Both the position numbers and the translations under genes were made by a program. A DNA stretch of 64,000 bases, taken from contig JAVBNF010000002.1 of assembly GCA_031551725.1 (NCBI GenBank), forward strand, positions 2,296-66,295, given 5' to 3'. The stretch comes from Bacteroidales bacterium (GTDB taxonomy: Bacteria > Bacteroidota > Bacteroidia > Bacteroidales > P3). The notes beneath the pieces were generated by a model that saw only the letters and a list, made by a program, of their open reading frames with translations, was not told the DNA's origin and did not search any database. Of this stretch, positions 3-50,439 are shown piece after piece (position 1 is the stretch's first letter; every line of letters starts with the position of its first letter).

Positions 3-3000
3 AACGAATGGTACATCTCAGTTTTGTCCAAATATGCCGGAAGATATGCCGCTTATATTTCCAATACAAGCGACAATACAAATACCTACGATGCCTCGGT
101 ACGTACGGTTTCGCACTTGTATCGCGATATCTCTTTACCCGATGGGCATAATCATTTTGTACTGAAATTTTATTGGAAATCAAACGGCTCTACATCCGCA
201 AACTTGAAAGTGTATGCGGTCGAAACTACCGTTGTGCCTGTATCCGGCGTATTGCCGGCATCAGCTGCACTTGGAACTTTTATGCTGTCGGAAAACCAGT
301 GGAAATACGATTCGGTGATACTTCCGGCGAAAGCAAATCAGAATTTCCGGCTTGTATTTACCTGGGACAACGATATAGCCGCTGCTAATCAGCCTCCTGT
401 TACGATTGATAATTTAACAATTACTGCAAGTTGCGCGGCGCCCGTTTCCGAATATCCATACGCTAAACTTATTGAAGCGACAGAAATTGATTTGGCATGG
501 CAAGCCGGCGGCACCGAGTCGGCGTGGGAATTGGCAATGAATGAGGTTTATAAATTCAACCCCAATGATGTCGCTCCGGTTGCCGTTGCAGATTCCCATT
601 TTCGTGTTTTGGCTCCCGGTTATGTGCAGGCCTATTATGTGCGTGCAGTTTGTGGAAACGCGACTTACAGCTCATGGGCAGGTCCGTACATTGTTCCTTC
701 TCCCGTGCCGTTCTTCGAAGATTTTGAAAAAGAAAACGGTTGGTATATTTCCAATAAAGGTTCCGATAATAAATGGATCATTGGCAGTGTTGCCGTTAAG
801 AGCGGCAATGCGTCGGCATACATTTCCAAAGACGATGGTAGTACGAATTCGTATGATGTAACGGACATCAGCGGAGATTATCTGTATCGCGATTTCTTTA
901 TAAAAGGCGGTACGCAAACCGTTCTGAATTTCGACTGGCGTTCGATGGGAACCTGTCCCGGCGCAACCTTGAATGTATATGCGTTGAGTACCGATGTTGA
1001 TATCGAAAACGATTTCTTTTCTGCACTTTCGCCTGCAAATGCGTTGGAATCTTATTCGCTTCAAAATACATGGCAGAACGCAACGGTTAATCTGCCTGTA
1101 TATACGGTAGATACGGTGATACGGCTTGCATTTGAATGGCAGGTTGATATTTTTGGCGGCGCCATAGCTGTAAATCCTCCGGCAGCGGTGGATAATATTC
1201 GATTGCTTCGTTCGCCTGCGCCTGCGCCACGGGCATTTACGGTTTATACACAAGGGATAGATGCTTTTAAGTTAAAGTGGAGCCCTTTTGGAAGTGAGCA
1301 GTTGTGGAAAATAAAATATGCACAAGCTGTTGATTTCGATCCGAATACATCGGGTATTTTTGTTTCTACAACCCAGCCGGAAGTGAATATAACGGGAGTG
1401 ACAACCACTGCTGTTTATGCATTCTATGTGAAAACGTTCAATACTACAGGCGATTCCAACGAATGGGTAGGACCTTATCACAATATCGAAAATTTCGCGA
1501 ACGGCATTTCGGTCGATTGGGAAGCGAGAAACGGTTGTCAACTCAATCGCTGGGAACTGGGAACAGCCGCCGCGTATGTGGATAATTCCAAAACCCTTTA
1601 TATCTCGAGCGATGATGGAGTATCGAATGATTATATACAAGGTCAGACTTCGGTTGTCCATTTTTGCAAAGAAATTATGCTGCAGGCCAAGCAAAAGGCT
1701 GCCAAGATTGAGTTTGATTTGAATATGCAGGAAGAATGTGAGAAGGAATTTTATTTGCGTATATACTTGGTAGATCCGAATATCAAACCTCGTCCGGGAA
1801 CTTCGTTGAGGTATTATGCCGGTGCCCAAATGATTGGAGAGTACAGTATTTCGAATGGATATTTTATAACGAAAACGATTAACCTGCCCGATGTTTTGAA
1901 AGATGTATCCAAGCGATTGGTGTTTTCATTTGAACAGCGTTTTTCGATATGGCCGGTAACTACGGCAACCGTTCCGCCGGCAATCAACAATATCCGCATA
2001 TTGTCCGATGTTTTACCCATTCCTCAAGCCTTGACAGCTTTTCAAACAAGTCCTACATCCGCATTTTTGGAATGGGAAGCAGGATTGAATGAAACAAGTT
2101 GGACCATTGCTTTCGCTGAAGGAATTCAGACAGCCGCTGTAGGATCGAAAATTTCGGTAAACACTCAAAATCGTATTATTTCCATTGATGGAACAAAGAA
2201 TTACACCTTCTGGGTGAGTGCGAATGATGCTGCCGGAAATTCGCTCGAGCGTTACAATGGACCGTTTTTCTTGAATGAAACATTTGAACTGGATGCATTC
2301 AACTTTTCGAAGTTAAGTTTATGGAAAATAAATAATGGTTGTCAAACAAACCAATTTTACCATAGCGACGTTGTTCACCCTCTCGGTGGAAGCGGATATT
2401 CGGTTTATATATCCAATCACGATGGAAATACATATAGCTATGACAGCAGTGCGGCATCGCGAGTTTATATGTCGAGAGATGTGATGTTTCCGGAAGGTTT
2501 TCAGAAAGTGCAATTAACGTTTGATGTAAGAATAAAAGGAGACTGCAGCAGCGATTATCTCGCAGTTTATGCAACAGATCCGGACGATTATGTATTTCCG
2601 GGCACTTGGTTTCTGCCGGATGATAAATATTTACTAAAAAAAATCAGCGACCCTAATGGCATTTCGGGTACAATTGTTATTGATATTCCTAAAGAATTTG
2701 TTGGTAAAAAACGATTGGCATTTGCATGGATCAACGGCCCGGGATTGGCGCACGGAAATCCACCCGCTGCCATTGATAATATCCGCCTAACGGCATCCAA
2801 TATTGTTTATCCGGAACATCTAACTGTTTATCGCGAACGCAATACAGCCCTTAACGACGGCTTTATTGCAAGTTGGGAAAAAATTAAAGATGCCAAGTAT
2901 TATGTTTTGAGTTATGGTGGAAATACGGTGAATGTATATGGAACAGACACCGTTATCCGCATGAATTTAACCGGATTAAATCCTGTTTTTAAAATTCAAA

Positions 3001-6000
3001 CCGTTTACCAAACTAACACGAGCGATTGGTCGCCCGCTGTGAAATTAATTCATGATTTTGAAACGGATGTGGATGCTTGGAAATTGATTAATGAATGCGG
3101 AAATCGTTGGGTAATTGGGGCGAAAGCGACGGCTACGAAAGCGGCTTATATTGCACCTTATGGCAAAGATACAAACGATTACCTGTTTCCGACAAGTTTG
3201 GCATACTTGGCCTTGCCGGTATCATTTCCCACCCATGCCGCATCTTGTCAAATGATTTTTGATTGGCGTTCCTTGGGAGATTATTGCGATTATATGAAGT
3301 TCTTTATTTCCGATGCGTTGCCGAAAGCAGGAGTGGAGATCAATACTTCTTTTACGGATATCCGTTATCGTTTCAAAGATACATGGCAAACCGATACGTT
3401 TAATTTCGATCCATCGTATATAGGAAAGACGGCATATTTAATTTTTGAATGGAGCAATTCTTTTGGGACTGTGAAAAGTCCGCCGATTGCCCTTGATAAT
3501 ATTCGCTTTCAAGCCTCTTCGTGTGGTGCCGCACCAAGAGCGATCACTCCATTTCATCGCGGAAACAATAGTGTCGTTTTAGATTGGACAAACAACGGCC
3601 GAGATACGGCCTGGGATATTTTTTATGGAAGAAAAGGGGATGATATTTCATCTTTTACAACGATTCATACAAAAACAAAGCCTGCCGTTTTTACAATTAC
3701 TTCCGGGATTTCGTACGAACTTTATATGCAGGCATATTACCAAGATGGCTGTAAAAGTGAGCTTTCTCAAGCTGTTTCTTTGGATGAAAACTTCGATCAT
3801 GCCAGCGTTCGTAACTGGAATTTTGTAAATGGAACGCAGCCTAATCAATGGTTTGTCGGTGATGTTGCCGGTCCTGCAAATAATCCTGCGGCATATATTT
3901 CTGCACATTGTGGTGCCGATTATTATAGTTTTGGAGCAAGTCAAACATATTTTTATCGAGATATTACAATTCCTAACGGCTACAGGAAAGTGAAAGTTTC
4001 ATTCGAATGGAAAAATAAAGGCAGTAAAGATGATTATATGCAGGTGGCTTTGGGATATCCTTCGCAAATGCCTGTTCCCGGAGAATATTACCCGGGTGTG
4101 GCCATCCCTGATGCTGCTACCTATTTTTTCGGTGCCGATTGTTGGACATCGGCCTCTGTTGATGTGCCTTCATTTTTTTATGGAAAAACCGCACGCTTGG
4201 TGTTTTCATACAAAACAGTGGGGCTGGGAGTAAGTTCCCCGGCAGCCATTGACAGCATTAGCTTTAGTGTCGATAACTATCCTGCGCCGATAGCGATGAG
4301 TGCATTTTCTAAAACCGACACATCGGCCTTGCTTTCTTGGGCCGCGTTTGGAAATGAAATACGGTGGAAAGTAAAATATGCACCAAGAATGTTTTTACCA
4401 AATGAAACGATAGGCGTAGATTCAATAACGGTTACCGAGAATATGTGTGCAATCTCTCTAAAAACAACGGGCGATTACCATTACTATGTACAGGCAGATT
4501 ATGGAATAGGAGGCTGGAGTACATGGGCAGGGCCTTTCGAATTTAAGGAAACATTTGAAACGGCAAGTGCTGCGCAATGGCATGCGGTAAATGCTTGCGA
4601 AACAAGTCAATGGGTGCTTGGAACTGCTGCCGGTGGAGATGGCAAAACGGCTTACATTTCGAAAGACAATGGAACTACAAATACATACGATAATACCCAA
4701 AAATCCATCGTTTATTTTTATCGCGATATTTATCTTCCGCGCGGATACCAGCATGCATTTATGATGTTCGATTGGAGATCTATGGGGCAAACGGGAGATG
4801 AACTGCAAGTCTATTTGCAAAATATAAACTCTGTACCTGTACCCGGTACAGAGCCTTCCGGAAAACTATTGGGAATATTCTCCGGTTCTTCGCAATGGAA
4901 ATCACAACGTGTGAATTTCGGTATGGATGCAAGCGGTCCCGTCCATTTGCTTTTTGTTTGGAAAAATAAAGTAAGTGCAAGTGCACAGCAACCACCCGTG
5001 GCGATTGATAATATTCAATTTTTCTTGCGTTGTGTTCCGCCTAATGAAATTACAGTTGACCCTACGGTAACGAAAGACCTCGTGAGTGTTATGACCTGGC
5101 AGCAGGGCGAAAGCGAAACCCGTTGGCAAGTGCAATATGGTCCGCAAGGCTTTAATTTGGGCAATGGAACAATTCATAACGTTTCGATTTTGACGGATAC
5201 GTTGAAAAATCTTCAACAAGATGGTTATTATGATACCTATATCCATTCTGTTTGTTCGGAGGTTTCTTTTAGTGATACTGCCGGTCCATATACTTTCCGT
5301 GCACCCGCATTTATCGACATATCCGATAAACTGTCGAACCCGGTGAGTAAACTTGATGGAGCCTCTGCATTATGGATGGATTATGATAATGATAATTTAC
5401 TTGATGTATTTATAAGCGGTTACGATACGGTTATGAAAAAGCCGCGAATGTTTGTATATAAAAACGCTGTTACAGGAAATTTAATTGCTCAAAATGCCGA
5501 ATTTATGGGCTTCGACACGGTATTGGCGTATGGAACATTGAATGCAGTTGATTTCGATAACGACGGAAATATTGACATCTTAATGACCGGAAGTAAAACA
5601 CAGTCGACTGCCGGAGCAGCTGCCTTCCTTTATAAAAACAATGGAGACGGAACGTTTTTGAAATCCTTCATACAGCTTCCTGCTGTTTGGAAAAGTACCG
5701 TCGCTGTCGGCGATTTTAATAACGATGGTTTTCCGGATATTTTGATTGCCGGACAAACACCTAACGGAACTTCGATTACCAAATTATATAAAAATAAAAA
5801 CGGAAAATCACTTCTCGAAAATACAACTGCCTTCCCCTTATTAAATGAAGGAGCAGTGGCTTTCGCTGATTTGCAGAGAAGTGGAGTTTTGGATATTGTT
5901 GTTTCCGGACATTCTGCTTCGAAAATACAGGTGTTTTCCAACAATAAAAACGAAACTTTTACTATTAAATCCATTGACATCCCAAATATGAAACGCAGTG

Positions 6001-8231
6001 CAATTGCTGTTGGCGATGTTGATAACGACGGCTTGCTCGATATTGCTGTCGCCGGAGAGCGTTCTGCCGGAACTTCATCAGCATCCATGTTAATGGTCTA
6101 TAAAAACGGTGGGAATCTGAATTTTACCAATATATACAGTCTCCAAGAATATTGGCGGTCGGGAACCGTCGCTTTCGCAGATTATGATAACGACGGATTT
6201 CAGGATTTGATTTATTCAGGTATTTCCGCTGCCAATCAGTATGAAGCAAAAGTGTTGCAAAATACAAAAACATCATCATTTACACAAGCATCCATTTTTA
6301 AAACCGCAAAAAATCCGAAAATTTATTTTTGTGATTATGATAAAGACAATCGTATTGATGCTTTCCAAGTCAATGAAACCGGCGGATTTTTATATCGAAA
6401 TAAAATAGATGCAGTCAATACAACTCCTCCAAAACCCACAGAATTACGATCGGTAATTGATACTTGCGGCATTACTCCCGATGGACGAACTCCTTGCAGC
6501 GTTGTGCATTTTTATTGGACAAAACAAAACGATGTATTGTCAGGAGTGAATGGAACAACATGTAATATTCGCATATCCGACAATCGGAATACCGTTAATT
6601 TGCGTGCTCCACAAGCCGAAATCCAAGTAATCGACAACGGTTATAAGCGTACGGTTTCACAAGGTGAAATTATTGGAAACACTTGGTCGTATGCCGCATG
6701 CCTATTGGGAGGAACTTATTATTGGAATGTGCAGGCGATTGATGGAAGTATCGAAGGTAGTCCGTTTTCCGATATTGATTCTATTGTAATTCCCAATGTC
6801 TACGCCCAAGCAATGAACGACACCGTTATTTGTTCCGGCGATTCGCTTATGCTATATATGATTGCGGCACAAGAAACGCCCACGTGGTCGGACGGCACAA
6901 AAACATGGGTGCAACCAACTCTCGCGGTATTGCCTAAGCCCGATACATCGTATTACTACGTAAGTGTTCCCGCTCTTTGCGGATTATACAAAGACACTGT
7001 CATGGTGTATGCAAAAAACTGCGATTTGCCGTTTGTGCAATATACGCTTTCGGGAAAAGATACACTGTGTTATTTGGAAACGAACACTATCACGCTCAGC
7101 GGCTCCGAAGAACAAACCTATTACCAACTCTATTTGAATGGCGATACGCTTGGTACGCAAGTTTTGGGCGATGGGAATCCGATTATATGGAGATATACGA
7201 AGCCCGGCGAATATACCGTTGAGGTCTATAGACATAAACGTTTTGAATTTCTGCAAACAAAATTAAAGGTGGTTGTTGATTCAATGCCAATGCTCATTCT
7301 GCCGGGAGATACTACCGTTTGCCAGTATCAAATAGTGAATGCACAGCCTTTCATCTACAATGGAAAATTAGATCCGGCGTTTAATCAATTGGCCTTTCGT
7401 GTTGAACACGATACAACACTTACTGTTACGGCTTCAAATACCTGCGGTCAAGCCAAAGACAGCATTAAAATTATGACACTGCCTGCACCTTATTTTACCT
7501 TTGTCGGCGACACCGCAATTTGTAAAAACGACACCTTGTATTTGAGTATTAATTGTGATGATGCCGCGGCTACTGTTGTTTGGAATACCGGCGAAACAAC
7601 AAAAAATATTCAGAAGCGGATGACGACTTCGCAAAATTTTATTGCAACCACCTATTCGTCAACCAATCAATGCAGCTATACCGATACATTCTCCGTTAGA
7701 GTGGAAAGTATAACAGCACAGTTGGACTATCAGCCCGACCGCATTTATATTGAAGATCCTACCGTTCATTTTGTCGATAGTTCGCAGGGAGCTGTTAAGC
7801 ACTCATGGAAATTTAGCGACGGATATACTTCCTCTGCCGCATCGTTCGACCATACATTCGATTTGTCGTCGGATACCGTTTTAGTGCTTTTGAAAACAAC
7901 TTCCGCGTTTGGCTGTACGGATTCTATTATACAATTATTGCTTGTCGAGTATGGTGTGCGTATTTATGCTCCAACTGCATTTACTCCGAATGGAGACGGA
8001 TTAAACGATGAATTTTATTTGATGATTCCCAATGTTGAAACCATTGAATGGTACGTATTTACACGCTGGGGCGAAAAAATATTTTCTGCCGATAACATTC
8101 AAGCGCGTTGGGATGGCTACTATTCCGGAAAACGCATGCCGCCGGGCGTTTATACGTGGAAAGCAAAATTTAAAGTAGAGAAAAACTCCGAGATTCATAC
8201 TGCTACCGGCTTTGTAACAATTGTTGAATAA
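3..8231 (+). CDS. Giant secreted multidomain surface/adhesin-like protein, 5' end outside window. It has at least 7 repeated beta-sandwich modules alternating with Fn3-like modules, an FG-GAP/VCBS repeat block, Ig-like repeats and a C-terminal T9SS type-B sorting domain
   Basis: The ORF is open to the window edge (frame from nt 3). A module ending motif recurs 7 times: PPVTIDNL, PPAAVDNIRL, VPPAINNIRIL, PPAAIDNIRL, PPIALDNIRF, SPAAIDSISF, PPVAIDNIQF. FG-GAP-like DxDNDGxxDI repeats are present (DFDNDGNIDIL, GDFNNDGFPDIL, GDVDNDGLLDIAV, ADYDNDGFQDLIY). The C-terminus PTAFTPNGDGLNDEFYL...GVYTWKAKF matches the gliding-motility/T9SS type-B CTD. Confidence 0.85.
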   Translation, partial: NEWYISVLSKYAGRYAAYISNTSDNTNTYDASVRTVSHLYRDISLPDGHNHFVLKFYWKSNGSTSANLKVYAVETTVVPVSGVLPASAALGTFMLSENQWKYDSVILPAKANQNFRLVFTWDNDIAAANQPPVTIDNLTITASCAAPVSEYPYAKLIEATEIDLAWQAGGTESAWELAMNEVYKFNPNDVAPVAVADSHFRVLAPGYVQAYYVRAVCGNATYSSWAGPYIVPSPVPFFEDFEKENGWYISNKGSDNKWIIGSVAVKSGNASAYISKDDGSTNSYDVTDISGDYLYRDFFIKGGTQTVLNFDWRSMGTCPGATLNVYALSTDVDIENDFFSALSPANALESYSLQNTWQNATVNLPVYTVDTVIRLAFEWQVDIFGGAIAVNPPAAVDNIRLLRSPAPAPRAFTVYTQGIDAFKLKWSPFGSEQLWKIKYAQAVDFDPNTSGIFVSTTQPEVNITGVTTTAVYAFYVKTFNTTGDSNEWVGPYHNIENFANGISVDWEARNGCQLNRWELGTAAAYVDNSKTLYISSDDGVSNDYIQGQTSVVHFCKEIMLQAKQKAAKIEFDLNMQEECEKEFYLRIYLVDPNIKPRPGTSLRYYAGAQMIGEYSISNGYFITKTINLPDVLKDVSKRLVFSFEQRFSIWPVTTATVPPAINNIRILSDVLPIPQALTAFQTSPTSAFLEWEAGLNETSWTIAFAEGIQTAAVGSKISVNTQNRIISIDGTKNYTFWVSANDAAGNSLERYNGPFFLNETFELDAFNFSKLSLWKINNGCQTNQFYHSDVVHPLGGSGYSVYISNHDGNTYSYDSSAASRVYMSRDVMFPEGFQKVQLTFDVRIKGDCSSDYLAVYATDPDDYVFPGTWFLPDDKYLLKKISDPNGISGTIVIDIPKEFVGKKRLAFAWINGPGLAHGNPPAAIDNIRLTASNIVYPEHLTVYRERNTALNDGFIASWEKIKDAKYYVLSYGGNTVNVYGTDTVIRMNLTGLNPVFKIQTVYQTNTSDWSPAVKLIHDFETDVDAWKLINECGNRWVIGAKATATKAAYIAPYGKDTNDYLFPTSLAYLALPVSFPTHAASCQMIFDWRSLGDYCDYMKFFISDALPKAGVEINTSFTDIRYRFKDTWQTDTFNFDPSYIGKTAYLIFEWSNSFGTVKSPPIALDNIRFQASSCGAAPRAITPFHRGNNSVVLDWTNNGRDTAWDIFYGRKGDDISSFTTIHTKTKPAVFTITSGISYELYMQAYYQDGCKSELSQAVSLDENFDHASVRNWNFVNGTQPNQWFVGDVAGPANNPAAYISAHCGADYYSFGASQTYFYRDITIPNGYRKVKVSFEWKNKGSKDDYMQVALGYPSQMPVPGEYYPGVAIPDAATYFFGADCWTSASVDVPSFFYGKTARLVFSYKTVGLGVSSPAAIDSISFSVDNYPAPIAMSAFSKTDTSALLSWAAFGNEIRWKVKYAPRMFLPNETIGVDSITVTENMCAISLKTTGDYHYYVQADYGIGGWSTWAGPFEFKETFETASAAQWHAVNACETSQWVLGTAAGGDGKTAYISKDNGTTNTYDNTQKSIVYFYRDIYLPRGYQHAFMMFDWRSMGQTGDELQVYLQNINSVPVPGTEPSGKLLGIFSGSSQWKSQRVNFGMDASGPVHLLFVWKNKVSASAQQPPVAIDNIQFFLRCVPPNEITVDPTVTKDLVSVMTWQQGESETRWQVQYGPQGFNLGNGTIHNVSILTDTLKNLQQDGYYDTYIHSVCSEVSFSDTAGPYTFRAPAFIDISDKLSNPVSKLDGASALWMDYDNDNLLDVFISGYDTVMKKPRMFVYKNAVTGNLIAQNAEFMGFDTVLAYGTLNAVDFDNDGNIDILMTGSKTQSTAGAAAFLYKNNGDGTFLKSFIQLPAVWKSTVAVGDFNNDGFPDILIAGQTPNGTSITKLYKNKNGKSLLENTTAFPLLNEGAVAFADLQRSGVLDIVVSGHSASKIQVFSNNKNETFTIKSIDIPNMKRSAIAVGDVDNDGLLDIAVAGERSAGTSSASMLMVYKNGGNLNFTNIYSLQEYWRSGTVAFADYDNDGFQDLIYSGISAANQYEAKVLQNTKTSSFTQASIFKTAKNPKIYFCDYDKDNRIDAFQVNETGGFLYRNKIDAVNTTPPKPTELRSVIDTCGITPDGRTPCSVVHFYWTKQNDVLSGVNGTTCNIRISDNRNTVNLRAPQAEIQVIDNGYKRTVSQGEIIGNTWSYAACLLGGTYYWNVQAIDGSIEGSPFSDIDSIVIPNVYAQAMNDTVICSGDSLMLYMIAAQETPTWSDGTKTWVQPTLAVLPKPDTSYYYVSVPALCGLYKDTVMVYAKNCDLPFVQYTLSGKDTLCYLETNTITLSGSEEQTYYQLYLNGDTLGTQVLGDGNPIIWRYTKPGEYTVEVYRHKRFEFLQTKLKVVVDSMPMLILPGDTTVCQYQIVNAQPFIYNGKLDPAFNQLAFRVEHDTTLTVTASNTCGQAKDSIKIMTLPAPYFTFVGDTAICKNDTLYLSINCDDAAATVVWNTGETTKNIQKRMTTSQNFIATTYSSTNQCSYTDTFSVRVESITAQLDYQPDRIYIEDPTVHFVDSSQGAVKHSWKFSDGYTSSAASFDHTFDLSSDTVLVLLKTTSAFGCTDSIIQLLLVEYGVRIYAPTAFTPNGDGLNDEFYLMIPNVETIEWYVFTRWGEKIFSADNIQARWDGYYSGKRMPPGVYTWKAKFKVEKNSEIHTATGFVTIVE

Positions 8232-9972: not shown

Positions 9973-10140
9973 TTGGAAAAAAGAGCATCCTTCGGGTATC
10001 GGTGAAGGCTTTCGCTCCGAAGGAGCATAGCTACAATAACCCAGGACATTGTCCTGGGTTGATAATGCTCCACCACGCCCATAACCTGTGTTTTCGGCGA
10101 AGCCGAAAATGATTAATTTCATTATCTCAAAAATTATTTC

Positions 10141-10148
10141 TATCTTTG
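10141..10148 (+). promoter_or_regulatory. Bacteroidota -7 promoter box TATCTTTG
   Basis: Exact match to the TAnnTTTG consensus, upstream of the structured leader and the FISUMP gene. Confidence 0.5.
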
Positions 10149-10195: not shown

Positions 10196-10370
10196 TAAAA
10201 AAAGCGTAAGCTTAAATTCTTGTAACGAAAACGGCCAAAATTTTCACAATCAAAGAATTCGTAAGCGATGCGCTCATGCTGTGTTCCGGCGTGAGTTGTG
10301 TCTTATTTTGATTGTGGGTGCTTGGCCGTACCTCGTTGCAAATAAGAATTCAACTCGCGCCTTTTTATTT
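10196..10370 (+). ncRNA. Conserved structured leader element, copy 1 (unassigned family), ending in a U-tract
   Basis: Aligns with 48384-48555. A 48-nt core is identical (10262-10309 = 48449-48496). Three flanking helices keep complementarity through compensatory changes. Confidence 0.55.
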
Positions 10371-10429
10371 ACATACAGCCCCTTCGGGGCTTGTTGGAAA
10401 TGAAATTAACAAACAAAATAAAACACAAC

Positions 10430-12727
10430 ATGAAAACAAATTTACAATTTCCGAATGCGGCCTGTACGGGTTACCCTTGCGGTTGCCCTGCCAATGAAAA
10501 TGCGCCATCGCTTGCTGTACGGGCACCCCTTGCGGTTGCCCCTTTGAACGACAATGTACGGGCGTATTGCATACGCCCATCAAAAGGGCACCCGCAAGGG
10601 GTGCCCCTACGATTTGCCCAATGGATTTTTCTGCAATTCTGCATTTTTGCATTTCTGCCCATTTTCGCTCAAACGGTTGGCACAACCAAAACCTTCACCG
10701 ATACTCGCGACGGACAAGAATACAAAGCCGTCTTCATGCCCGACGGACGCTGGTGGATGGCTGAAAATCTAAAATACCGCAAGGATTTGACAAATCCGGT
10801 GTTTTCGAATATGCCTGTCATTACCAATACACAAGCGAGTTTACAAGCACAGTATTACTGTCCCGGTTATGGTCCGCTTGTAGCGGGGGTTGGAGCTACA
10901 CAAGCAGATCCGGTGGCTTGCGAATATTGGGGAGTACTGTATCCTTGGTGGGCGGCAATGATGATTCGGAACGATGGAAGCGCGCCTTATTATTCTGATT
11001 TAGCAGGATCGCAAGGCATTTGTCCGCAAGGCTGGCACTTACCCAGCGATAAAGAATGGGGATATTTGTTAGATTCTGTGGAACGGAGTTTTAATCCGGC
11101 TTACGCGCTTTTACATACGACAACGACAACCGCTTATTACGGAACAACTTCAACCAACAAAGCTGGTTCTTATCTGAAATCAAGCAGTGTGCAAGCCGGA
11201 AATTGTGAAGAATGCAATCCTAAATGGATTTCGGGCACTTCAACTGATAACTATGGTTTCAATGTAATCCCAACAGGCTATAGAACCTGGAATGGCGCTT
11301 CGTATGTCGGCCGGGGAAGCGAAACCTATTTTTGGACATCCACCAAATCGACAACGGCTAATTATGCCATTTACAGAGGTTTCACGGCAGCAGAAGTCCG
11401 TGCAGGCCGCTGGGATGGATACGCTTCCTATGGGCTTTCTGTTCGTTGTGTAGAAGGAGGATATGCAAAGATAGAACTGACATTATGTCAAAGTAACGAC
11501 GTGTACGAGATAGCAGTGAAAAATTTTGTTAATTACACGAAATATGTTTTCAGCATTGATGATGTGGATCAAACTGAAAGTGTTGAGTCTTATCGCTTCT
11601 TTAAGTCTTCGGATCTTGGTAAAAGAATTAAGGTTAGAGGGTATACCACTGAAGGAGCTTGGAGTGCTGTTTCCGAAGAGTTAATTATTGGAGAAGCAAT
11701 GGATACAATTCCGAATGCACCTCGTTTAGCTGTGAACACAGGTTCTGCGACAGGGTACAATGTCGCAATAACTACGACGGCTACTGCTATTCCGGGATGT
11801 ATTGTAAATTTTTTAACCACAGCTTCCAATGGAGCTATTTCAGCAGCAAATACTTTGACTTATGGAGGGACTCAATATACCGTTTATGCAGCCAGCGTGA
11901 ATCTATCTAATGGTTGTGTCAGTTCCGATCGGGGAATGTCGACGGTTATTCTCTACTCGGGGAATTATGTGCAACGAAATTTAATTCCGGGTACCTATCA
12001 AATGGAATGCTGGGGGGCCAAAGGAGGTAATAATGTCGGCGGATACTATGGTACGGGAGGGAATGGAGGTTACACTAAAGGCTTGCTCACTCTTTCAAAT
12101 ACAGATACGGTTTACGTATATGTAGGAGCATTGGGGGTGAATGGCGTCACAGGAAATAATACATATACGTCTGCTATCTATAATGGTGGAGGGCAAGGAC
12201 GTAGTTCTTGCGATTATGATGATGGTGGAGGAGCTGGAGGTGGAGCATCTGATATACGTTTGCTTCCGGGGGCATGGAATTTATCAAGTGGATTGAAGAG
12301 TAGAATTATGGTTGCAGGTGGTGGTGGCGGCGGCGATATTGTGCAAGCGTATGCTGTTAGTGGTGCTCATGGAGGAGGATTGACAGGAGTTGGAAATGTA
12401 CAGTATTGGCCAAATGTTGTTGTAAGTGGAGCATCCGTTAATGGAACACAAACATCTGGTGCGAGTTTTGGAGGTGGTGGAATAGGCTGGTGTGGCAACG
12501 GCGGCGGCGGTGGCGGTTATTACGGCGGAAAAAGTAATGGTGGTGGTGGTGGTGGATCTGGTTTTATATCGGGTCATCTTGGATGTGATGCCATTACAAG
12601 TGAAACAGATGGAACGCATACCGGCCAACCTAATCACTATAGTGGACTGGTCTTTACAAATACCACCATGTCGGCAGGTGTTCGTAATAGCTATGGGTCG
12701 GTTGTCATTGTCCGCACTGGAAATTAA
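10430..12727 (+). CDS. Secreted FISUMP (Fibrobacter succinogenes major paralogous) domain protein with Ig-like middle region and C-terminal glycine-rich domain
   Basis: TFTDTRDGQEYKAVFMPDGRWWMAENLKY...YGLSVRCVEG is the TIGR02145-type signature. The C-terminus has GTYQMECWGAKGG...GGGAGGGASDIRL...VAGGGGGG glycine-rich repeats. ATG at 10430 was chosen by alignment with the paralogue start (AAAACACAACATGAAAACA). An in-frame GTG at 10601 is an alternative start. Confidence 0.8.
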   Translation: MKTNLQFPNAACTGYPCGCPANENAPSLAVRAPLAVAPLNDNVRAYCIRPSKGHPQGVPLRFAQWIFLQFCIFAFLPIFAQTVGTTKTFTDTRDGQEYKAVFMPDGRWWMAENLKYRKDLTNPVFSNMPVITNTQASLQAQYYCPGYGPLVAGVGATQADPVACEYWGVLYPWWAAMMIRNDGSAPYYSDLAGSQGICPQGWHLPSDKEWGYLLDSVERSFNPAYALLHTTTTTAYYGTTSTNKAGSYLKSSSVQAGNCEECNPKWISGTSTDNYGFNVIPTGYRTWNGASYVGRGSETYFWTSTKSTTANYAIYRGFTAAEVRAGRWDGYASYGLSVRCVEGGYAKIELTLCQSNDVYEIAVKNFVNYTKYVFSIDDVDQTESVESYRFFKSSDLGKRIKVRGYTTEGAWSAVSEELIIGEAMDTIPNAPRLAVNTGSATGYNVAITTTATAIPGCIVNFLTTASNGAISAANTLTYGGTQYTVYAASVNLSNGCVSSDRGMSTVILYSGNYVQRNLIPGTYQMECWGAKGGNNVGGYYGTGGNGGYTKGLLTLSNTDTVYVYVGALGVNGVTGNNTYTSAIYNGGGQGRSSCDYDDGGGAGGGASDIRLLPGAWNLSSGLKSRIMVAGGGGGGDIVQAYAVSGAHGGGLTGVGNVQYWPNVVVSGASVNGTQTSGASFGGGGIGWCGNGGGGGGYYGGKSNGGGGGGSGFISGHLGCDAITSETDGTHTGQPNHYSGLVFTNTTMSAGVRNSYGSVVIVRTGN
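10464..10610. repeat. Cluster of four GTACGGGC-type palindromic (REP-like) units inside the 5' coding region
   Basis: Units at 10464-10488, 10517-10542, 10556-10578 and 10586-10610 (the last inverted). Same family as 17229-17253 and 30267-30290. Confidence 0.8.
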
Positions 12728-30259: not shown

Positions 30260-30266
30260 TATATGG

Positions 30267-30290
30267 TAGGGGCAACCCTCGCGGTTGCCC
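30267..30290. repeat. GTAGGGGCAACC-CTCGC-GGTTGCCC palindromic unit between fusA and rpsJ
   Basis: Same family as 17229 and the 10464-10610 units. Confidence 0.75.
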
Positions 30291-48258: not shown

Positions 48259-48288
48259 AACAGATTTTGTATTTTTGAAAATAATTCA

Positions 48289-48296
48289 TACCTTTG
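48289..48296 (+). promoter_or_regulatory. -7 promoter box TACCTTTG
   Basis: TAnnTTTG match upstream of structured leader copy 2. Confidence 0.5.
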
Positions 48297-48383
48297 CGAA
48301 ATAAAATAACAAGTTAACGAGGTGACAAGTTAACAAGAAAATAGAAAGTAAAAAATATCGAATAAATTAAACATCATTAAATA

Positions 48384-48555
48384 AAAAGAAAGCGTAAGCT
48401 TTATTCTTTTCAAGAAAACCGCCAAAATTTTCAGAGCAAAAAGAATAATAAGCGATGCGCTCATGCTGTGTTCCGGCGTGAGTTGTGTCTTATTTTTGCT
48501 CGGGTGCTTGGCGGTACCTCTTGAAATAAGAATTCAACTCGCGCCTTTTTATTTA
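48384..48555 (+). ncRNA. Conserved structured leader element, copy 2 (unassigned family)
   Basis: Paralogue of 10196-10370 with an identical 48-nt core and covarying helices. Ends CTCGCGCCTTTTTATTT, 25 nt before the ATG. Confidence 0.55.
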
Positions 48556-48579
48556 ATTCACAATTAAATAAAACACAAC

Positions 48580-50439
48580 ATGAAAACACAATTACTTTGT
48601 AGCAGAAACTCAAGCATGCAGAAATGCAGAAAAATGTTCTATTTCTGCATTTTTACACTTTTGCACTTCTCCTTTATTCCCTCAACCTTTGCCCAAAATG
48701 TGGGCGACATCAAAACTTTCACCGATTCGCGCGATGGGCAAAGCTACAAAGCGGTTTTTATGCCTGACGTCAGATGGTGGATGGCAGAAAATTTAAAATT
48801 TCATACAGGGTTGAATAATCCTGTGTTTGCAGATCATACAACTGCAAATACACTTGCCGCACTGAAAAATACGTATTATTGCCCGGGTTTCGGTCCGTTA
48901 AACACATCACAGAACAAGCAATCAGATCCTTTGTCGTGTGAATATTGGGGAGCTTTATATCCGTGGTGGGCGGCAAATTCAACAGCTCCGGGATATGGCA
49001 TTTGTCCGAATGGATGGCATTTACCGACGGATTTCGAATGGCAATTTCTTATTGATCTTTGCGGTGGAGCAAATGCCGGGAAATTATTGAAAGACAGTAG
49101 ACGTGGGGATTTTGATAATAATCAATCTTGGAATGTTTTATGGACAAATGCTGCTTCTGTAAATAGTGATGCTTTTGGGTTTAAAGTATTGGCTGCGGGC
49201 TTGCGTACTGCTGGCGGAACCTTTGATGGTAACGGAACGCAAGCCCATTTTTGGACAAGCACACCTGTTAATGAAACGGATGTTGCAGCCGGCATTTCTC
49301 GTGGGTTTGGAAACAAGCAGGATAATGTTTCCCGAAATGCTTTAACAACGAATCTCCGGTCGAATGCATATTCGGTGAGATGTGTAGAAGGAGAGTGTAA
49401 AGAAACTATGAATGCGACACTCTCTCCGGTAACACAGGGATGTAATCAGTATCGCACAGTTGCATCGTTTGATGTGATTGAATTTATTCCCGGACAAATT
49501 AAATACCAGACATTTGCTATTTCCGGCCTTTCCGGTGCATCTTATACCACTCCTGTTATTTCGGATATTCCAAGCGGAGTCAGCATAACTTCGTCTGCGA
49601 TAGCGTCTAATCAATTTACATTGACAATTTCCGGAATTACGAATAGAAACCTCAATGCTGCATTTAAAATTAAATTAACGGCAACTCATCCCAAATATTG
49701 TGGCAAAATGGAGCAGGAATTTGTTATTCGACTGCAAATGTATGGAAATAATGGGTATTTTACTGATGCGCGGGACGGTAAAGAATATAGGGCAGTGAAA
49801 ATGCCGGACGGTAAATGGTGGATGGCGGAGGATTTGAATTACAGGACAGGCTTAAGCCAGGGAAGTCAATACTATTGCTATAACAATAATGCTGCAGATT
49901 GTGATGCCTATGGCGCTTTATATACGTTCACTACGGCGATGTCTTTAAATGGAGTAGGGGGATTTTCGAATAGCACTTATTGTGGAACCTTGGGGGCGTG
50001 CCATGTAAATGCTCAAGCGGGCGGCCGAGGAGTGTGTCCCGTTGGCTGGCATGTTCCAACAGACCTTGAATGGAAAACAATGTATAATACAATTGAAAAT
50101 ATTACAGGAGGATTGGCAAATCAGACCAATAGAACCGGCGAATTTGGAACAAATGCAGCCAATTATCTTCGTAAGTGCAATGATATGCAGTACGATTATT
50201 CAGCCATTGATAGGTATGGGTTTTCTGTACGGGCAAGAGGAGGTTATAATACAGACCCCTTTGATACAGGATGGGGATTGGGGTATGTTCAGCAAAATTG
50301 GACTGCATTTTTTTGGACATCATCACCACAAAATAGTCTTTATGCTCGTTATAACTTGATGTACATAGGTTGGGAGAAAGTTGCACATTATGAGCATCCG
50401 TACACAACAGCTTTTGGTGTCCGCTGTGTGGCGAATTAG
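48580..50439 (+). CDS. Secreted protein with two FISUMP domains separated by an Ig-like region
   Basis: Signal peptide FYFCIFTLLHFSFIPSTFAQ. Two copies of the F(T)D.RDG..Y.AV.MPD..WWMAE(N/D)L ... VRCV signature. Confidence 0.85.
   Translation: MKTQLLCSRNSSMQKCRKMFYFCIFTLLHFSFIPSTFAQNVGDIKTFTDSRDGQSYKAVFMPDVRWWMAENLKFHTGLNNPVFADHTTANTLAALKNTYYCPGFGPLNTSQNKQSDPLSCEYWGALYPWWAANSTAPGYGICPNGWHLPTDFEWQFLIDLCGGANAGKLLKDSRRGDFDNNQSWNVLWTNAASVNSDAFGFKVLAAGLRTAGGTFDGNGTQAHFWTSTPVNETDVAAGISRGFGNKQDNVSRNALTTNLRSNAYSVRCVEGECKETMNATLSPVTQGCNQYRTVASFDVIEFIPGQIKYQTFAISGLSGASYTTPVISDIPSGVSITSSAIASNQFTLTISGITNRNLNAAFKIKLTATHPKYCGKMEQEFVIRLQMYGNNGYFTDARDGKEYRAVKMPDGKWWMAEDLNYRTGLSQGSQYYCYNNNAADCDAYGALYTFTTAMSLNGVGGFSNSTYCGTLGACHVNAQAGGRGVCPVGWHVPTDLEWKTMYNTIENITGGLANQTNRTGEFGTNAANYLRKCNDMQYDYSAIDRYGFSVRARGGYNTDPFDTGWGLGYVQQNWTAFFWTSSPQNSLYARYNLMYIGWEKVAHYEHPYTTAFGVRCVAN

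Follow-up and report, generated by a model that had tools for sequence, protein, structure and literature searches.

A rod-forming leader RNA repeated upstream of FISUMP genes in a Bacteroidales chromosome and its possible role in two-state premature termination

Two FISUMP genes and their shared leader

The 64-kb stretch of DNA analysed here (the window) is ordinary chromosome, carrying dnaA and the genes for RNase Y, EF-G, a penicillin-binding protein and a giant type IX secretion substrate. A 2735-aa open-reading frame (24–8231), which continues beyond the 5′ side of the window, encodes MAM, fibronectin type III and FG-GAP repeats and a C-terminal CHU_C type IX secretion signal. Two genes in the window encode secreted FISUMP proteins, and their domain contents are as stated in the original prediction, one product combining a FISUMP domain with an ALK_LTK glycine-rich domain and the other carrying two FISUMP domains. 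Each gene is preceded by one copy of a leader element of ~175 nt, which spans AAAAGAAAGCG to CGCGCCTTTTTATTT in copy 2. Upstream of the two copies, on the same strand, lie mnmA and a gene for a tRNA pseudouridine synthase, both of them housekeeping genes. The coordinates of all features of the two loci are collected in Table 1. The sequence, the identity of the apex and the linker before the ATG were found as originally described, and so was the second copy.

Table 1 Features of the two leader loci, in window coordinates
Feature	Copy 1	Copy 2	Strand	Remarks
−7 box	10141..10148	48289..48296	+	Regex scan; Bacteroidetes-type in both copies; copy 1 TATCTTTG; copy 2 TACCTTTG, with TTTG 19 nt upstream (48266–48269)
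Leader rod	10196..10372	48384..48555	+	Copy 2, ~59 bp; covariance model 225 bits (copy 1) and 205 bits (copy 2)
Terminal inverted repeat		48376–48557		Wider than the element itself
Domain A hairpin (5′ half)	10203–10274	48391..48461	+	Segments 1:2
Invariant 48-nt block (apex)	10262–10309	48449–48496	+	Identical in both copies
Apex hairpin		48454–48489	+	GAUGCG-CUCAUGCUG-UGUUC-CGGCGUGAG-U-UGUGUC; antiterminator-like
Mini-ORF	10268–10294	48455–48481	+	MRSCCVPA, 8 codons, AUG CGC UCA UGC UGU GUU CCG GCG UGA
Domain B hairpin (3′ half)	10288–10361	48475..48545	+	Segments 3:4; candidate intrinsic terminator
U-tract	10362–10370	48546..48554	+	UUUUUAUUU in copy 2, adjoining the last paired C of domain B
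Linker	10416–10429	48566–48579	+	AAATAAAACACAAC, identical in both copies; adjoins ATG at 10430 (copy 1) and 48580 (copy 2)
Linker and start codon	10416..10432	48566..48582	+	A-rich initiation region, AAAUAAAACACAAC-AUG
Downstream gene	10430..12727	48580..50439	+	Secreted; copy 1, FISUMP and ALK_LTK glycine-rich domain; copy 2, two FISUMP (PF09603) domains

Conservation of the leader is far above that of the genes downstream. The two leaders share 87–91% identity, compared with 54% nucleotide and 42% amino-acid identity for the first FISUMP domains of the two genes, and the two promoter regions are 53% identical. Within the leader, the 48-nt apex is invariant, its 38-nt core having no other occurrence in the window (0/100 shuffles), and a 31-nt 3′ block ending in CGCGCCTTTTTATTT is likewise identical between the copies. 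A covariance model built from copies 1 and 2 matched these two only within the window.

A −7 box was found upstream of each copy, and the same regex scan placed no TAnnTTTG box between the element and the ATG in either, so that the FISUMP gene must be transcribed through the element. The proposed layout of promoter, structured domain, U-tract and open-reading frame was thus borne out. A TATTTTTG box within copy 2 (48491) is missing from copy 1, and an internal promoter was rejected as a general feature. In copy 2, a 40-nt insertion between promoter and rod, missing from copy 1, holds a direct repeat (48309–48337; two units of ACAAGTTAAC(G/A)AG, 16 nt apart, each with a GTTAAC palindrome), a possible candidate for a regulator binding site. 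At copy 1, the promoter, the leader and the signal-peptide part of the gene are enclosed by a 20-nt inverted repeat (18/20; 9993–10012 and 10688–10707), the right arm of which encodes the KTFTDTR start of the FISUMP domain; the repeat could be what is left of a rearrangement, or could delimit an invertible segment. A Bacteroidales invertible promoter was rejected as an explanation of the loci because such inverted repeats are present at copy 1 only and there are none at copy 2; bearing on the same reading, the orientation of a Logan contig at copy 1 matches that of the window.

The linker adjoins the start codon in all three copies that we know of (the third is described below), and the distance from U-tract to ATG is ~25, 39 or 59 nt. 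This spacing varies because copy 1 alone carries a 33-nt insertion between U-tract and linker, with a small G+C hairpin (10377–10391) that has a UUCG loop, AGCCCCTTCGGGGCT. The U-tract and linker of copy 2 (48547–48573) can form a perfect 12-bp A–U hairpin, UUUUAUUUAAUU/AAUUAAAUAAAA. The motif TAAATAAAA recurs just 5′ of the rod in both copies, giving the U-tract two possible partners.

Repeats were also observed inside the coding regions. An imperfect 32-nt inverted repeat (48601–48673) lies in the 5′ coding region of the copy-2 gene, where the DNA for the signal-peptide n-region (MQKCRK) is the reverse complement of that for the hydrophobic core (FCIF), so that the mRNA would form a hairpin ~25 nt past the AUG; the n-region is common to several paralogs. 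A REP-like, palindromic, G+C-rich 25-mer, GTACGGGCACCCCTTGCGGTTGCCC, occurs three times in frame in the copy-1 gene, after the MKT start and before the signal-peptide hydrophobic core (10464–10488 and 10517–10541 on the + strand, 10586–10610 on the − strand), and a fourth time after the EF-G gene (30266–30290, + strand). Odd inserts of a similar kind (VRAPLAGAPL, GHPQGVPLRF, CTGxPCGCPANN) were seen in ~10 paralogs in the protein alignment.

A protein search returned ~22 further FISUMP paralogs, 34–50% identical, on contigs of 22–118 kb that are probably from the same assembly as the window. When the paralogs were aligned, 22/24 started with MKT, mostly MKT(Q/N/H), and at the level of sequence this common start points to a start region shared among them. 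The Logan contig of one paralog, P0019, starts with the 3′ end of a third leader copy, AACTCGCGCCTTTTTATTTAATT...AAATAAAACACACCATG, and all three known copies have the same orientation and lie just upstream of a FISUMP paralog. The tie between element and gene family, at first argued from the duplicated gene and leader, is upheld by this third paralog and by the common MKT start. In the same sample, short-read contigs are interrupted exactly at the 5′ edge of the element, within the 3′ block and in the linker, as a multi-copy repeat causes assemblies to do, and one Logan contig ends exactly at the 5′ edge of copy 1 (10195).

Searches of Rfam 15 with both copies, at the gathering score and at E ≤ 10, produced chance-level matches only. 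An exact 21-mer from the apex had 0 matches in genome, viral and metagenome collections, and a transition-tolerant R/Y pattern of the apex had 0 matches in the viral and metagenome collections. The comparison of FISUMP leaders foreseen in the original prediction came out in two parts: it yielded the third copy at P0019, and the covariance model found the element absent from 80 distant FISUMP loci (GTDB; Bacteroidales, Fibrobacter and others; 24–36% identical). Relatives of mnmA (~80% identical), the names of which include Bacteroidales, Candidatus Symbiothrix, Dysgonamonadaceae, Azobacteroides and Microbacter, have neither a FISUMP gene nor the leader downstream; these names place the organism among uncultured Bacteroidales. 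Since Rfam gave no match and the element is absent from the 80 loci and from the collections scanned, it looks lineage-specific rather than a general feature of FISUMP genes.

Rod and two-hairpin folds of the leader

Both copies were predicted to fold as an unbranched rod (−62.3 and −65.1 kcal/mol; z = −7.1 and −6.8), and 0/200 shuffles folded as well. In the rod, segments pair 1:4 and 2:3 and the linker and AUG are single-stranded; the internal loops are at most ~4 × 3 nt in the minimum-energy fold, and the closing helix, AAAAAGCG/CGCGCC, is weak and interrupted (4 bp, a mismatch and 2 bp) where it meets the U-tract. A structure-aware alignment of the two full copies, a single pairwise comparison as the third copy is a fragment, contained 58 shared rod pairs, with 46 invariant, 2 changed on one side, 10 changed in a compensatory manner and 0 broken. 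All of the changes are confined to three helices, H3, H4 and H5. When copy 1 was mutated at random with an equal number of changes, the mutants folded at −41 ± 5.6 kcal/mol, and 0.1% reached the −59.9 kcal/mol of copy 2. In both copies the + strand folds 6–9 kcal/mol better than the − strand, a difference due to five G–U pairs in the apex. Judged by this comparison of sequences, the rod appears to be under selection as an RNA.

A second fold, of two hairpins, was also predicted for both copies. In folding of the growing transcript, the pairing of segments 1:2 (domain A) is the minimum-energy fold at 90–120 nt in both copies, with the helices AGCGUA/UGCGCU, GCUUA/UAAGC and AAUUCUU/AAGAAUU. Domain A is supported by a single compensatory change, from A:U to U:A, in a pair whose positions the rod leaves open; its energy in copy 2 (−16.0 kcal/mol, z = −2.6) is unremarkable, ~30% of rod-preserving shuffles doing as well. 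Domain B, the pairing of segments 3:4, consists of an 11-bp G+C-rich base, GGCGUGAGUUG/CAACUCGCGCC, and an 8-bp helix, UCUUAUUU/AAAUAAGA, and is followed at once by UUUUUAUUU. Its energies are −34.3 (copy 1) and −35.2 (copy 2) kcal/mol (z = −6.8 and −7.1), compared with −15 ± 3.9 kcal/mol for the 3′ half in 300 rod-preserving shuffles, 0/300 of which reached the observed value. The rod alone does not account for domain B. Its helices are invariant between the copies and cannot for that reason be tested by covariation. Gene ends within the window carry a similar hairpin and T-tract.

The two folds are mutually exclusive at one strand, GGCGUGAG, which either pairs with CUCAUGCUG in the rod and apex hairpin or builds the base of the terminator, so that formation of the apex hairpin CUCAUGCUG/CGGCGUGAG excludes that of the terminator helix GGCGUGAGUUG/CAACUCGCGCC and vice versa, as an antiterminator does. 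These models bear on two parts of the original prediction. The attenuator idea stands in outline, with the terminator relocated: on the modelled structures, the local 3′ hairpin with its 11-bp base is a better and more canonical terminator than the long-range closing helix to which termination had been ascribed. The apex is invariant in both copies, as claimed, and the ligand pocket proposed for it may not be needed, as the two alternative partners of the apex strand could explain the invariance. In the two-copy alignment, however, the columns paired in both folds are not significantly less variable than others (p = 0.55).

At the decision length, the rod is 6–11 kcal/mol more stable than the alternative, so the two-hairpin fold would matter only kinetically or with the help of a factor. 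Findpath barriers between the folds came to 32–37 kcal/mol, values that are untrustworthy because the nested model forbids the loop–loop kissing that would nucleate a real transition. The rod also puts a helix beside the U-tract, and might itself terminate transcription, which would leave no permissive state.

The leader may further be coupled to the start codon by complementarity. In the two-hairpin fold, the freed strand 2b, CAUGCUGUGUU, pairs with AACACAACAUG at 10/11 positions including the start codon, and the linker and AUG are also complementary to GUUGUGUCUUAUUU (13/14). A duplex between initiation region and leader as strong as the one observed arises in at most 0.8% of shuffles, and the sole change in the linker of the third copy is at the single mismatch of the helix between 2b and the initiation region. 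For the full-length leader, the two-hairpin fold with the AUG paired lies only 2.3–3.7 kcal/mol above the rod. Pairing of the linker with the 3′ arm of the apex on its own was rejected, as it costs 11–19 kcal/mol and is plausible only within the two-hairpin fold.

A possible termination switch and its rivals

Given two predicted, mutually exclusive folds, we tentatively favour a cis-acting, two-state leader for premature termination as the best explanation of the element, an assignment whose chances we put a little short of even. Transcription would start at the promoter ~40–80 nt upstream and pass through the element to the FISUMP gene. The rod would be the permissive fold, with a weak helix at the U-tract and with the A-rich ribosome loading region and AUG free. 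The two-hairpin fold would be the off state, in which the 3:4 hairpin acts as an intrinsic terminator ahead of UUUUUAUUU, and in any transcripts that read through in this fold the freed apex strand would mask the linker and start codon. The choice would be made during transcription, by kinetics or by a protein or RNA acting on the invariant apex or the 5′ half; control by a factor or by kinetics is probable, and no cognate regulator gene, sensor or ligand for the leader was identified. Terminated transcripts could refold to the rod, with the 5′ A-tract and 3′ U-tail paired, and persist as a stable short RNA. We infer which fold terminates, the existence of a controlling factor and any effect in vivo.

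The two-state leader could in principle extend to a family-wide RNA circuit, a proposal that we consider quite improbable. At least 20 FISUMP paralogs would each have a two-state leader, and the terminated RNAs would silence the other paralogs in trans through their invariant apex, which is complementary to the initiation region and AUG that all paralogs share, while the copy-specific covarying helices H3–H5 would give each locus its identity. If true, a variable family of lectin-like proteins, secreted or on the surface, would be expressed one at a time or in a coordinated way by RNA alone, without DNA inversion.

The most credible of the rival explanations, itself unlikely, is a small RNA of ~200–260 nt, free-standing or derived from the 5′ UTR, that acts in trans, for example on the initiation region of the paralogs. 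Its ends would be protected by the paired 5′ A-tract and 3′ U-tail, and read-through into the gene would be incidental or secondary. A strong terminator hairpin with a U-tract is what such an RNA would have, and in copy 2 a perfect 13-nt inverted repeat does let the U-tail pair with the 5′ flank. The complementarity of the apex to the linker and AUG (13/14 and 10/11; ≤0.8% of shuffles) would supply a target, and the unit of high identity is sharply bounded by the A-tract and U-tract, where the Logan contigs break. However, the gene has no promoter of its own, which places the element in its 5′ UTR regardless, and each of the three known copies stands immediately before a paralog, in one common orientation. 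Within the rod, moreover, the complementary apex strands are base-paired, an unusual state for a seed region. The small-RNA and attenuator models are compatible and not exclusive.

The long, mostly double-stranded rod, whose 8–12-bp helices are kept by compensatory changes, would also suit a constitutive mRNA element without a switch, that is, an RNase III site, a stabiliser or an insulator against read-through from housekeeping genes, and both copies do come after such genes on the same strand (mnmA and the pseudouridine synthase gene). We regard this as improbable. It leaves unexplained both the independent −35 kcal/mol hairpin of the 3′ half (0/300 controls) and the complementarity of the linker and AUG to the apex, and an insulator placed 3′ of the only promoter would silence the gene it serves.

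A repeat that acts at the level of DNA is very improbable. The element would then be a MITE-like palindrome or a gene-conversion tract, perhaps a substrate for recombination of 5′ modules, and the paired changes would come from template switching. The disparity between leader (87–91%) and coding (54%) identity is as expected under concerted evolution, the boundaries are sharp and break short-read assemblies, TAAATAAAA-like direct repeats stand on both sides, and the genome contains other palindromic, REP-like repeats. Yet the two copies in the 64 kb share one orientation and one position before a FISUMP gene, they have no definable terminal inverted repeat with a target-site duplication and no clean termini, and a transposase or recombinase gene adjoins neither. 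Conservation of bulges and internal loops, which have not been perfected, also argues against a DNA palindrome, as do the five G–U pairs of the apex, which become A–C mismatches on the other strand and make it 6–9 kcal/mol worse.

The apex contains a mini-ORF that is identical in both copies. An unpaired, A-rich loop precedes it, two Cys codons stand side by side within it, and its stop codon overlaps the 5′ strand of the terminator. In a leader-peptide attenuator, a ribosome on this frame would open the apex hairpin and free GGCGUGAG for the terminator; we give this a slim chance. The mini-ORF lies wholly in the invariant block, which allows no test of coding constraint, both folds pair its AUG, no AUG is present in or upstream of segment 1, where classical leader peptides act, and a second, overlapping frame differs between the copies (11 versus 34 codons). 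Slimmest of all is the chance of a metabolite-binding riboswitch with the apex as aptamer, as entertained in the original prediction, for which the apex is suitably invariant and a terminator-type expression platform is present, but the rod has no branches and contains neither a multi-helix junction nor a pseudoknot, Rfam gave no match at E ≤ 10, no homologue was found in the genome, metagenome and viral collections or at the 80 distant FISUMP loci, and the genes encode secreted lectin-like proteins with no obvious metabolite logic.

On the favoured two-state reading, the RNA motif is new and restricted to one lineage, and its mechanism is of a kind already known. What may set it apart is the rod versus two-hairpin architecture, the possible combination of termination with masking of the start codon, and its repetition across a large family of secreted proteins. 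To our knowledge, few cis-regulatory RNAs have been described in Bacteroidales, and we know of almost nothing on how the expression of large, fast-diverging FISUMP families is controlled. As a compact and testable model, the leader would serve the study of how secreted proteins are controlled across a family in a gut or symbiont lineage that is uncultured, and the element is a candidate for a new Rfam RNA family.

Comparison with known regulatory systems

The size of the element (~180 nt) and its rod with internal loops resemble those of 6S RNA (Rfam families 6S and 6S-Flavo). Unlike 6S RNA, the element is multi-copy, stands directly before open-reading frames and is without a large central bubble, and the 6S covariance models did not match it at E ≤ 10.

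Conditional-terminator leaders (transcription attenuators and riboregulators), in which terminator and antiterminator folds are mutually exclusive (PMC5314783), share the layout of the element, as they also lie in the 5′ UTR on the strand of the gene and have a hairpin and U-tract terminator. In these leaders, as in the element, the 5′ half of the terminator stem can instead pair with a strand upstream of it, the segments joining either 1:2 and 3:4 or 2:3. The element differs in that its 2:3 pairing comes with 1:4, giving a ~60-bp rod that again ends at the U-tract, in having no identified leader peptide, tRNA, ligand or protein sensor, and in being repeated before many paralogs of one family.

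Leaders of the BglG/SacY/LicT type, in which a RAT hairpin is coupled to a terminator, control genes by protein-dependent antitermination. They share with the element an imperfect antiterminator hairpin that overlaps the 5′ strand of a stronger terminator, and by analogy the G–U-rich apex hairpin of the element would plausibly need to be stabilised in order to win. Compared with RAT leaders, the element shows no RAT sequence similarity and its apex hairpin is embedded in a much longer rod; a gene for a CAT/PRD-domain antiterminator adjoins neither copy.

The capsule leaders controlled by UpxY and UpxZ in Bacteroides are likewise from Bacteroidales and belong to a family of surface or secreted loci in which a long leader decides elongation (PMC11685472). 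UpxY, a NusG paralog encoded by the first gene of each operon, reads paused polymerase through DNA (ops-like) signals, and the system also involves nascent RNA hairpins (PMC11685472). Elongation control in a long leader would allow family-wide or one-at-a-time regulation. Unlike the capsule loci, the loci described here have no linked NusG paralog, and what they conserve is a structured RNA with a terminator at its end. Were the terminated leader to act in trans, the element would be an RNA-based analogue of the UpxY/UpxZ logic of capsule loci.
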